Assembly (NCBI RefSeq): GCF_003334315.1
Contig: NZ_QOWR01000120.1
Length of the DNA stretch: 1,220 bases
Source: Escherichia coli
Lineage (GTDB): Bacteria > Pseudomonadota > Gammaproteobacteria > Enterobacterales > Enterobacteriaceae
Reading direction: 5' to 3' (one strand)
The position numbers were made by a program, and so were the translations under genes. Shown in pieces: positions 1-1,077 of the stretch. Position 1 is the stretch's first letter. Every line of letters starts with the position of its first letter. The notes beneath the pieces are model-generated. The model was given only the letters and a program-made list of their open reading frames with translations. It did no database searches and had not been told where the DNA came from.

Positions 1-1077
1 TTTGCGGTGATCCCGGCAGACAGAACATGGCGACCACAGCCGTTGCTGAAACCGCTGGTCGACGGCCCGCAGAGCGCCGTCGTGACGGGACCGGCAGGCG
101 AGGAAATCTTCTGTGATGAACATGGCCGCGTGCGGGTGAAATTTAACTGGGACCGCTATAACCCGTCAAACCAGGACAGTTCATGCTGGATCCGTGTGGC
201 ACAGGCGTGGGCAGGCACCGGCTTTGGCAACCTGGCGATACCGCGAGTGGGTCAGGAGGTGATTGTGGACTTCCTCAACGGCGACCCGGACCAGCCGATT
301 ATTATGGGGCGTACCTACCACCATGAAAACCGCACACCCGGCAGCCTGCCGGGGACGAAGACGCAGATGACCATTCGTTCGAAAACCTATAAGGGCAGCG
401 GGTTTAATGAACTGAAGTTTGACGATGCGACAGGGAAAGAACAGGTCTACATCCACGCGCAGAAGAACATGAACACCGAGGTGCTGAATAACCGCACCAC
501 TGATGTGATAAACAACCATGCTGAAACCATTGGCAACAATCAGATGATTGCGGTTACCAACAATCAGATACAGACGGTGGGTGTCAACCAGATAGAGACG
601 GTGGGCAGTAACCAGATAATTAAAGTGGGTTCTGTTCAGGTGGAAACGATTGGACTTGTTCGTGCGCTGACCGTGGGCGTGGCGTACCAGACGACGGTAG
701 GTGGCATTATGAACACTTCGGTGGCTCTGATGCAGTCCTCGCAGATCGGTTTGCATAAATCGTTGAGGGTCGGGCTGGGTTATGACGTCAAAGTCGGAAA
801 TAACGTTACCTTCACCGTTGGTAAAACGAAAAAGGATGATACCGGGCAGACCGCGATTTACTCCGCCGGTGAGCATCTGGAGCTCTGCTGTGGTAAGGCA
901 AGGCTGGTGCTGACGAAGGACGGACAAATTTTTCTCAACGGCACAAAAATTCATTTGCAGGGTAAGGAGCAGGTTAATGGTGACTCACTGTTGATTAACT
1001 GGAACTGTGCAGCCTCGAAATCCCCACCGAAGACCCCTGATGAAAAGCAGGATACGCCGGATATGAGAGAGTACTGA
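1..1077 (+). CDS. vgrG: Type VI secretion system spike protein VgrG (TssI), 5'-partial: C-terminal ~358 aa with gp5-like OB-fold region, Val-Gly beta-helix repeats and C-terminal tail; stop TGA at 1075-1077
   Basis: The frame is open from position 1 (ttt gcg gtg...), so the GTG at 7 is most likely an internal Val codon, not the start. The translation carries VgrG/gp5-type sequence such as ...RVRVKFNWDRYNPSNQDSSCWIRVAQAWAGTGFGNLAIPRVGQEVIVDFLNGDPDQPIIMGRTYHHENRTPGSLPGTKTQMTIRSKTYKGSGFNELKFDDATGKEQVYIHAQKNMNTEV..., recognised from memory. This is followed by about 15 octapeptide repeats with (V/I)G at fixed positions (QTVGVNQI / ETVGSNQI / IKVGSVQV / ETIGLVRA / LTVGVAYQ / TTVGGIMN ...), the Val-Gly repeats that gave vgr genes their name. 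A PAAR-Rhs gene lies immediately downstream. Confidence 0.95.
   Translation, partial: FAVIPADRTWRPQPLLKPLVDGPQSAVVTGPAGEEIFCDEHGRVRVKFNWDRYNPSNQDSSCWIRVAQAWAGTGFGNLAIPRVGQEVIVDFLNGDPDQPIIMGRTYHHENRTPGSLPGTKTQMTIRSKTYKGSGFNELKFDDATGKEQVYIHAQKNMNTEVLNNRTTDVINNHAETIGNNQMIAVTNNQIQTVGVNQIETVGSNQIIKVGSVQVETIGLVRALTVGVAYQTTVGGIMNTSVALMQSSQIGLHKSLRVGLGYDVKVGNNVTFTVGKTKKDDTGQTAIYSAGEHLELCCGKARLVLTKDGQIFLNGTKIHLQGKEQVNGDSLLINWNCAASKSPPKTPDEKQDTPDMREY
472..834 (+). repeat. Intragenic tandem octapeptide (24-nt period) Val-Gly repeats encoding the gp5-like triple-stranded beta-helix of VgrG
   Basis: The protein shows about 15 consecutive 8-residue units in register from about residue 158 to 277 of the open frame, with a hydrophobic residue then Gly at fixed positions. 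At the DNA level, units at 561-584, 585-608 and 609-632 are visibly similar (caatcagatacagacggtgggtgt / caaccagatagagacggtgggcag / taaccagataattaaagtgggttc). Confidence 0.8.

Follow-up and report, generated by a model that had tools for sequence, protein, structure and literature searches.

A short proline- and charge-rich C-terminal tail on an Escherichia coli VgrG encoded directly upstream of an RHS core gene

The vgrG-rhs locus and the end of the spike

We analysed a 1,220-nucleotide (nt) stretch of Escherichia coli DNA (hereafter the window; contig NZ_QOWR01000120.1 of assembly GCF_003334315.1) that carries the 3' part of a vgrG gene and the start of an rhs gene, with a focus on the short tail at the C-terminus of the encoded VgrG, the tip protein of a type VI secretion system (T6SS). 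The window matches E. coli 720632 with 100% identity at the yncH-ydcD (rhsE) locus, where a VgrG of 702 residues (WP_000103220.1, annotated as 'type VI secretion system tip protein VgrG') is followed directly by an 'RHS element core protein'. All features lie on the plus strand. The 1,077 nt of vgrG are in frame from nt 1 (the open reading frame is listed as 7..1077) and end in NWNCAASKSPPKTPDEKQDTPDMREY, with the TGA stop codon at 1075..1077. Positions 1..1008 encode residues 345-680, comprising the OB-fold and a gp5-like triple beta-helix up to a blunt platform (...LINWNC), as assigned from the reading frame, the match to WP_000103220.1, Pfam and TIGRFAM domains and an AlphaFold2 (AF2) model, and the tail occupies 1009..1074. 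A 66-nt spacer (1078..1143) with a Shine-Dalgarno sequence, AAGGA, at 1131-1135 separates the two genes and contains no adaptor or chaperone gene; CAGAAGGA-ATTG is the only block of it kept between lineages. The rhs gene starts with ATG at 1144 (MSGKPAARQGDMTQYGGPIVQGSAGV...), and its first 77 nt (1144..1220), assigned by annotation and NF041261 RHS_core, open a short PAAR-like N-terminal fragment.

The body of the protein matched Pfam Phage_GPD (E 1e-74), Phage_base_V and Gp5_trimer_C, TIGR03361 with 624 bits against a cutoff of 186, TIGR01646, and VgrG1 structures in the PDB at E 1e-97 to 1e-100, which by homology identifies it as a canonical VgrG/TssI spike. No Pfam or NCBIfam domain was found past approximately residue 630, and the gp5 domains of Pfam stop upstream of the tail. 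The triple beta-helix ends ...INWNC, with Cys680 at nt 1006-1008, and is followed by 22 residues from Ala681 (nt 1009), the position at which megablast homology between the window and paralogous vgrG copies also stops. A search of 1.84 billion proteins was carried out, and in its 150 best representatives most distant VgrGs stop exactly at the residue that corresponds to Asn679, or else at Asn-Cys (...IDLN, ...KILQN, ...KINC), so the tail is an addition past the canonical end of the spike. VgrGs with the ends ...KINC and ...RVNC precede PAAR proteins of family PF05488, and Cys680 can thus be taken to mark the PAAR-binding platform. The tail therefore lies after the beta-helix and next to the PAAR-binding tip, as the first-pass annotation of this DNA had proposed. 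That annotation had placed the tail at 1012-1074, translated as ASKSPPKTPDEKQDTPDMREY, which is correct except that the extension begins one codon earlier, at 1009. Judged by these alignments, the 22 residues of the tail are a real C-terminal extension past a blunt platform. Cys680 itself is invariant in the tail-bearing subfamily and is the final residue of several blunt VgrGs (P0087, P0091, P0101 and P0143 were examined); three cysteines at the trimer tip might add to PAAR or metal binding.

Composition, predicted order and conservation of the tail

Proline, lysine, aspartate and glutamate make up 0.57 of the last 21 residues compared to a mean of 0.20, the highest fraction among all 682 such segments of the 702-residue protein, bearing out the compositional bias noted at first pass, while the hydrophobic content is the second lowest. 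Proline is absent from residues 462-685, a stretch of 224 residues, and occurs four times in the last 17. The binomial probability of this bias is ~2e-4 per segment, with ~0.14 such segments expected across the whole protein, which is borderline for one protein; the same bias recurs in 12 homologous tails, with 22% Pro and 20% Asp+Glu. The term low-complexity fits the tail only loosely, since its entropy of 3.27 bits lies near the average for the protein (3.43) and no repeats occur.

Predicted order was assessed with an AF2 monomer model of VgrG residues 347-702 (a 356-residue fragment, 75-sequence alignment). Mean predicted local distance difference test (pLDDT) for the fragment was 86, and means of 10-residue blocks were 80-97 over fragment positions 11-320 (81-88 over 201-320) and then fell to 73, 60, 57 and 49 over 321-356. 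The tail corresponds to positions 335-356, within the last three blocks; pLDDT was below 50 at 346-352, and confidence was lowest at the variable acidic spacer described below. The model is thus consistent with the earlier suggestion that the tail is disordered. An 'evolved' VgrG carries a folded domain (ACD, lysozyme, TTR or the like) after the beta-helix; with 22 residues of pLDDT 49-60, no Pfam match beyond residue 630 and no similarity to a PDB chain, the window VgrG is not of this kind.

We gathered tails from genomic loci and from protein fragments and aligned those of 12 distinct enterobacterial lineages from both ends; word-indexed protein searches returned almost only short fragments, which give tail variants without genomic context. 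The tail consists of two islands, G/A-x-x-x-x-P-P-x-A/T-P and P-D-M-R-x-Y/F, conserved in the manner of short linear motifs, around a variable acidic centre. In the window these are the proximal segment AASKSPPKTP (1009..1038; consensus G-x-[AT]-x-x-P-P-x-A-P), the spacer DEKQDT (1039..1056) and the terminal peptide PDMREY-COOH (1057..1074; family pattern P-D-M-R-[QEK]-[YF]). Column counts in the proximal segment were Gly 11/12, Pro (or Val) 9/12, Pro 12/12 (position 7), Ala 10/12 and Pro 11/12, and in the terminal peptide Pro 11/12, Asp 11/12, Met 8/12, Arg 8/12 and Tyr/Phe 11/12. The spacer is acidic or serine-rich, with column entropies of 2.0-2.6 bits, and differs in length among lineages. 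The PDMRx[YF]-type end was present in Escherichia types A (the window) and B, Escherichia albertii, Trabulsiella, Buttiauxella, Citrobacter freundii and Salmonella, and more distant relatives have looser hydrophobic-x-x-aromatic ends. The strings PDMRQF, PDMREY and PDMRQY were absent from a full-text literature search with incomplete coverage, and within that coverage we found no prior description of the signature of the tail. The ...RQF and ...REY ends were also considered as mimics of the YxF outer-membrane-protein signal recognised by DegS, a candidate we rejected because position -3 is Arg and not aromatic.

Conservation of this kind could also act on the nucleic acid, as an RNA structure or translational coupling for rhs expression, or as a recombination site. 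The block GCCGGATATGCGGCA is conserved in the DNA of several genera, and vgrG-rhs fusions (P0016 and P0017) appear to have arisen by deletion at the microhomology CCGGATAT. However, the arginine codon of the terminal peptide is AGA in the window (AGA GAG TAC in type A) and CGG elsewhere (CGG CAG TAC/TTC) with the peptide kept, and distant relatives keep only the character of the peptide. RNAalifold on the tail and intergenic spacer of seven lineages gave a consensus of -4.9 kcal/mol with 0 compensatory pairs, and the fold of window positions 1000-1180 was no better than that of shuffled sequences (z = 0.52). The constraint is thus most simply placed on the protein, a role at the RNA level was rejected, and we regard conservation at the nucleic-acid level as a whole as highly improbable.

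The tail is not uniform across its range. In Pseudocitrobacter, Yokenella and Phytobacter it stops after the proximal segment (AASKAPPKTPG, GATETVPDAPK and GEAKNPPDAPEQ, respectively), with no frameshifted remnant of the motif evident just downstream, and in one Citrobacter sp. the end is degenerate (PPDIWQR). The proximal segment is kept even in the truncated forms and in Comamonas (NWNCGASKSPPAAP). In two Comamonas relatives (L019 and L020) the extension begins with this segment, which closely resembles NWNCAASKSPPKTP of the window VgrG, and continues in place of the short spacer with 130-190 residues that are rich in Gly, Ala and Ser (27-39% Gly, 17-41 GxxxG), ending ...VPIMPTF or ...GPLINF. 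A metagenomic relative has GGLGGL repeats, an ...AAGPIYM end and an Rhs of the same class downstream. Taken together, Gly-rich extensions (L019, L020 and L025/P0102) span 96-190 residues with GGLGGLAG repeats between a PPxAP segment and a hydrophobic or aromatic end. Given these shared ends, the short enterobacterial tail is equivalent to both extremities of a longer arm. The Gly-rich extensions, for which we found no description, may be membrane-active arms.

These longer forms raise the possibility that the tail is the residue of a once longer, glycine-zipper-rich extension of an 'evolved' VgrG, as the first-pass annotation had suggested in outline, or a drifting stop-codon extension, in either case with little or no present function. 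Some support for a remnant comes from the Comamonas and metagenomic relatives, in which the same two ends flank Gly/Ala-rich sequence with up to 41 GxxxG, and truncation in three genera and degeneration in one, an apparently tailless VgrG1c in Pseudomonas aeruginosa (see below) and sporadic in-frame VgrG-Rhs fusions that run through the tail point the same way. Set against this, at least six genera keep the terminal hexapeptide and PPxAP but differ in the sequence and length of the intervening spacer, and of the 2,733 E. coli genomes with the tail 95% have the identical allele, compared to 98% for the preceding 68 nt, although diversity is too low there to gauge constraint. We consider a vestige with little or no function unlikely.

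Pairing with one Rhs class and the question of specificity

Every tail-bearing VgrG (...WNC plus tail) with available downstream DNA lies 40-80 nt upstream of an rhs gene of a single class, with no adaptor or chaperone gene between them. The set comprised Escherichia types A and B, E. albertii, Trabulsiella, Buttiauxella, Citrobacter, Yokenella, Phytobacter, Pseudocitrobacter, the two Comamonas relatives and two metagenomic contigs. Proteins of this class start M-x-G-K/L-P-A-A-R-x-x-D...GAPTGVACSVCPGG...NPVNPLLGAKV. The first 400 residues of the Rhs matched NF041261 RHS_core with E 1.9e-259 (L001 10144-11343), and the N-terminus is only marginally PAAR-like (Pfam PAAR_motif E 0.14 over ~20 residues). 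DUF6531 covers residues 46-123 and is followed by RHS repeats, PxxxxDPxGL at residue 1249 and variable toxin domains. Residue 48 onward aligns with the first residue of the shell fragment of Tse5 (PDB 8CP6 chain B, E 6e-18), and by homology to Tse5 the sequence ...GN|PVNPLLGAKV is probably an N-terminal autocleavage site that frees a fragment of ~47 residues. These matches assign the downstream gene to the RHS element core, or Tse5-class, Rhs effectors.

VgrGs encoded next to other cargo end differently. E. coli VgrGs of the Eag/DcrB type end bluntly in ...GGSVFIN and those of the DUF2169 type in ...KDIHLNG, one blunt-ended E. coli VgrG being ~92% identical to the upstream part of the window, and distant VgrGs with another acidic tail (...LLN[ST]G-x-A-Q-x-A-P, no aromatic end) precede DUF2169 adaptors. 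Tail type thus goes with cargo class, and the window VgrG is a member of a subfamily devoted to RHS core (Tse5-class) effectors that lack a chaperone.

Whether the tail discriminates among Rhs proteins within this class, as proposed at first pass, is a separate question, and the comparison of C-termini between paralogues and strains gave it partial support. Strain 720632 also carries a type-B vgrG-rhs pair in its T6SS-2 main cluster. Identity between its A and B VgrGs is 90-100% over residues 1-500, 76-88% over 501-642, 64% over 643-690 and 38% over the last 12, making the tail the most divergent part of the protein, with Rhs N-termini that are 82% identical. Divergence of the tail between paralogues, its confinement to VgrGs that precede one Rhs class, and precedent in the literature all speak for a discriminating role. 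Both paralogues nevertheless end in PDMRx[YF], which being common to A and B cannot tell them apart, and the identical tail is paired with Rhs proteins that have 96% identical cores but unrelated toxin domains (15% identity), such that the tail does not track the toxin. No discordant combination of tail and rhs start (A/B or B/A, searched with chimeric queries) was present in 5,426 E. coli genomes, in which the A tail was carried by 2,733 and concordant B/B pairs by 2,058, but this perfect linkage carries no information, as no more than 66-75 nt of non-homologous spacer separate the two elements, which would stay linked without selection. A mosaic vgrG in the T6SS-2 main cluster of VTB96933v (L023 4969-7077) is B-like for ~1,400 nt and A-like from ~nt 1,500, with the crossover within the identical OB-fold region, indicating that the exchanged unit is the whole beta-helix, tail and rhs, and not the tail alone. 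Co-occurrence of tail type with Rhs class therefore stands, whereas A/B linkage is not diagnostic; together with the truncated tails, these sequence comparisons make it unlikely that the tail discriminates between paralogues A and B.

A motif that is identical in paralogues with different Rhs lineages might instead bind something other than cargo, such as a component of the T6SS baseplate or membrane complex or a factor of the target cell, in keeping with the lack of correlated change in the Rhs N-terminus where the motif has been lost. Such a partner in the apparatus is not generally required, because blunt E. coli VgrGs with ~92% nt identity upstream belong to the same T6SS-2 family (PMC7216683) yet lack the tail, and the strict association of the tail with one cargo class also speaks against it. 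We judge a partner other than the cargo to be quite unlikely, more so than loss of function.

Several rearrangements pass through or near the tail-coding region. In-frame VgrG-Rhs fusion fragments from E. coli (P0016, P0017 and P0026) have the junctions ...DTPD|IRLQLRDD and ...AASK|APSDIRLQ, at ~1062 and ~1020, and lose the spacer and the PAAR-like Rhs N-terminus, apparently via the microhomology given above; they resemble natural fusions such as PDB 8QJA. E. coli strain 800 encodes a VgrG of 1,046 residues (L003 5969-9109) in which the beta-helix is fused at ...IHLE|PEVTWYGWDGD... to a C-terminal Rhs core and toxin, an 'evolved' VgrG made by recombination in the T6SS-2 cluster. In E. coli OkiPb01717 (L032 3501-3576), ISEc8, an insertion sequence (IS) of the IS66 family, lies inside the tail-coding region after ...PDEK, and rhs is absent from the next 3.5 kb, where IS and prophage-type genes are found instead. 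A 165-residue E. coli protein annotated as 'NADAR family protein' (P0012) has the VgrG end including the tail as its last 69 residues and represents a chimeric reading frame from rearrangement. Apart from these, an antisense reading frame of 257 codons at 181-954 on the minus strand, opposite the beta-helix, is probably a chance frame of the kind common opposite repetitive Val/Gly-rich coding sequence.

A possible docking role and comparison with known tails

We infer from the conserved ends and the exclusive pairing that the tail may dock, as a tethered peptide, on the mounted Rhs and stabilise it, a reading we hold tentatively and at somewhat less than even chances. Three flexible arms per spike would leave the edge of the platform and pass the small PAAR-like N-terminal fragment of the Rhs, and the terminal peptide of each would bind in the manner of a short linear motif to some conserved part of the Rhs surface, whether on the cage, the DUF6531 plug or the N-terminal fragment. 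Docking would add stability to a 150-kDa cargo otherwise held by a PAAR-like peptide of ~30-47 residues, and the arms would take the place of the Eag, DUF4123 or DUF2169 adaptors of other cargo classes. The tail would be an accessory feature at the level of the cargo class, blind to toxin type and probably not responsible for telling paralogues A and B apart. Spacer length ranges from ~6 to ~180 residues with both ends kept, as a tether would lead one to expect. The low pLDDT of the tail and the precedent of VgrG tails that dictate delivery of an Rhs effector (PMC8668125) also speak for this reading. P. aeruginosa Tse5 binds the spike only through its N-terminal fragment of 47 residues, the first 29 of which are disordered (PMC10684867); additional contacts are plausible because the external PAAR-like piece amounts to only these ~29 residues.

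Several results weigh against docking on the Rhs. The first 125 residues of the Pseudocitrobacter Rhs are nearly identical to those of E. coli despite the truncated tail, such that the supposed partner shows no correlated change. The truncated Yokenella and Phytobacter tails and the degenerate Citrobacter end also count against docking. P. aeruginosa VgrG1c appears to end ...VDINC without a tail, as decoded from a reverse primer in PMC4067218 and not from a protein record. With three genera truncated and VgrG1c apparently tailless, the tail is best regarded as accessory. The perfect linkage of tail and rhs start, uninformative for the reason given above, lends docking no support. An AF2 model of Rhs(1-125) linked to three copies of VgrG(598-702), built on a 10-row paired alignment, reached a mean pLDDT of only 29 and a predicted template modelling score (pTM) of 0.19, too low to be informative. 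The idea that the tail completes a truncated PAAR cone was likewise weakened by VgrG1c, which seemingly carries the homologous Tse5 without a tail.

The terminal aromatic residue could alternatively pack in cis, with the tail running along the beta-prism of its own chain and stabilising the trimer tip or capping the platform until the Rhs binds. In the crystal structure of Salmonella VgrS, an acidic tail of 19 residues (711-729) runs from the platform down the prism of its own chain (bioRxiv 10.1101/2024.12.20.629533), and by alignment arithmetic the chain in PDB 9MLP should begin its tail at an approximately equivalent position. Paralogues A and B also share the motif, and between their prisms identity is 64-88%. 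In the AF2 monomer, however, the tail had low confidence and no secondary structure of a packing type, the spacers of 130-190 residues in relatives are not needed for a fixed fold-back, and no sequence similarity was detected between the tail and any PDB chain. We consider a fold-back in cis unlikely.

A broader form of the docking reading would make the tail the minimal member of an undescribed family of VgrG arms, with a PPxAP exit and a hydrophobic-x-x-aromatic 'latch' (PDMRx[YF] in enteric bacteria) that clamps Tse5-class Rhs cages with neither adaptor nor chaperone, and with beta-proteobacterial glycine-zipper forms of 100-190 residues that may be membrane-active; we consider this proposal improbable. 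If the tail does dock on the Rhs, the peptide would offer a defined target, simple to mutate, for studying how chaperone-less Tse5/RHS-core Rhs toxins stay on the spike and could aid the engineering of VgrG-Rhs cassettes for heterologous delivery. If it is dispensable, the tail would be a convenient neutral site for tagging VgrG.

Short VgrG tails can set effector specificity, as shown in Agrobacterium tumefaciens, enteroaggregative E. coli (EAEC), P. aeruginosa, Vibrio parahaemolyticus and Aeromonas dhakensis, including for the Rhs effector TseI (PMC8668125; PMC6971182), so the general statement of the first-pass annotation that VgrG C-terminal extensions do so is well founded. Like those tails, that of the window lies past the canonical end, diverges between near-identical paralogues and is of a type that co-occurs with cargo, the A/B linkage being trivially tight. 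One close parallel is A. dhakensis, where VgrG1, VgrG2 and VgrG3 are likewise near-identical paralogues with short divergent tails and where tail swaps dictate the effector, including TseI (PMC8668125). The A. dhakensis effectors use chaperones, whereas no adaptor gene lies between vgrG and rhs at the window locus. According to the summary of Bondage et al. 2016 in PMC6971182, the variable C-termini of A. tumefaciens VgrG1 and VgrG2 bind adaptor-effector complexes with Tap-1 (DUF4123) or DUF2169, placing specificity past the spike, where the window tail also lies; those tails recruit adaptors, while the window tail has a PDMRx[YF] end and appears to pair directly with an Rhs whose N-terminus is PAAR-like.

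Salmonella Typhimurium VgrS (PDB 9MLP) is the only solved short example we found, and it too is an enterobacterial VgrG with a PAAR-Rhs cargo and a short acidic platform tail of 19 residues. It differs in that its tail has no detectable similarity to that of the window and folds back in the crystal, and in that its cargo, Rhs1, has a split PAAR and an Eag chaperone. P. aeruginosa VgrG1c (PA2685) with Tse5/RhsP1 has the same cargo class as the window, with a PAAR-like fragment of ~47 residues, a DUF6531 plug and no chaperone gene (PMC4067218; PMC10684867; PDB 8CP6); because VgrG1c appears tailless from the published primer, the tail would be a lineage-specific addition and not a requirement of the class. 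The extension of EAEC VgrG1 is, according to the work of Flaugnatti et al. as cited in PMC13373197 and PMC8636562, also a C-terminal extension of an E. coli VgrG that binds its cargo, Tle1, directly, but it is a folded DUF2345-TTR region of more than 100 residues, compared to 22 residues with low pLDDT and no Pfam domain in the window. Based on these sequence comparisons, the window tail is one more of the effector-linked VgrG tails already known, unusual in its direct pairing with a chaperone-less Rhs.

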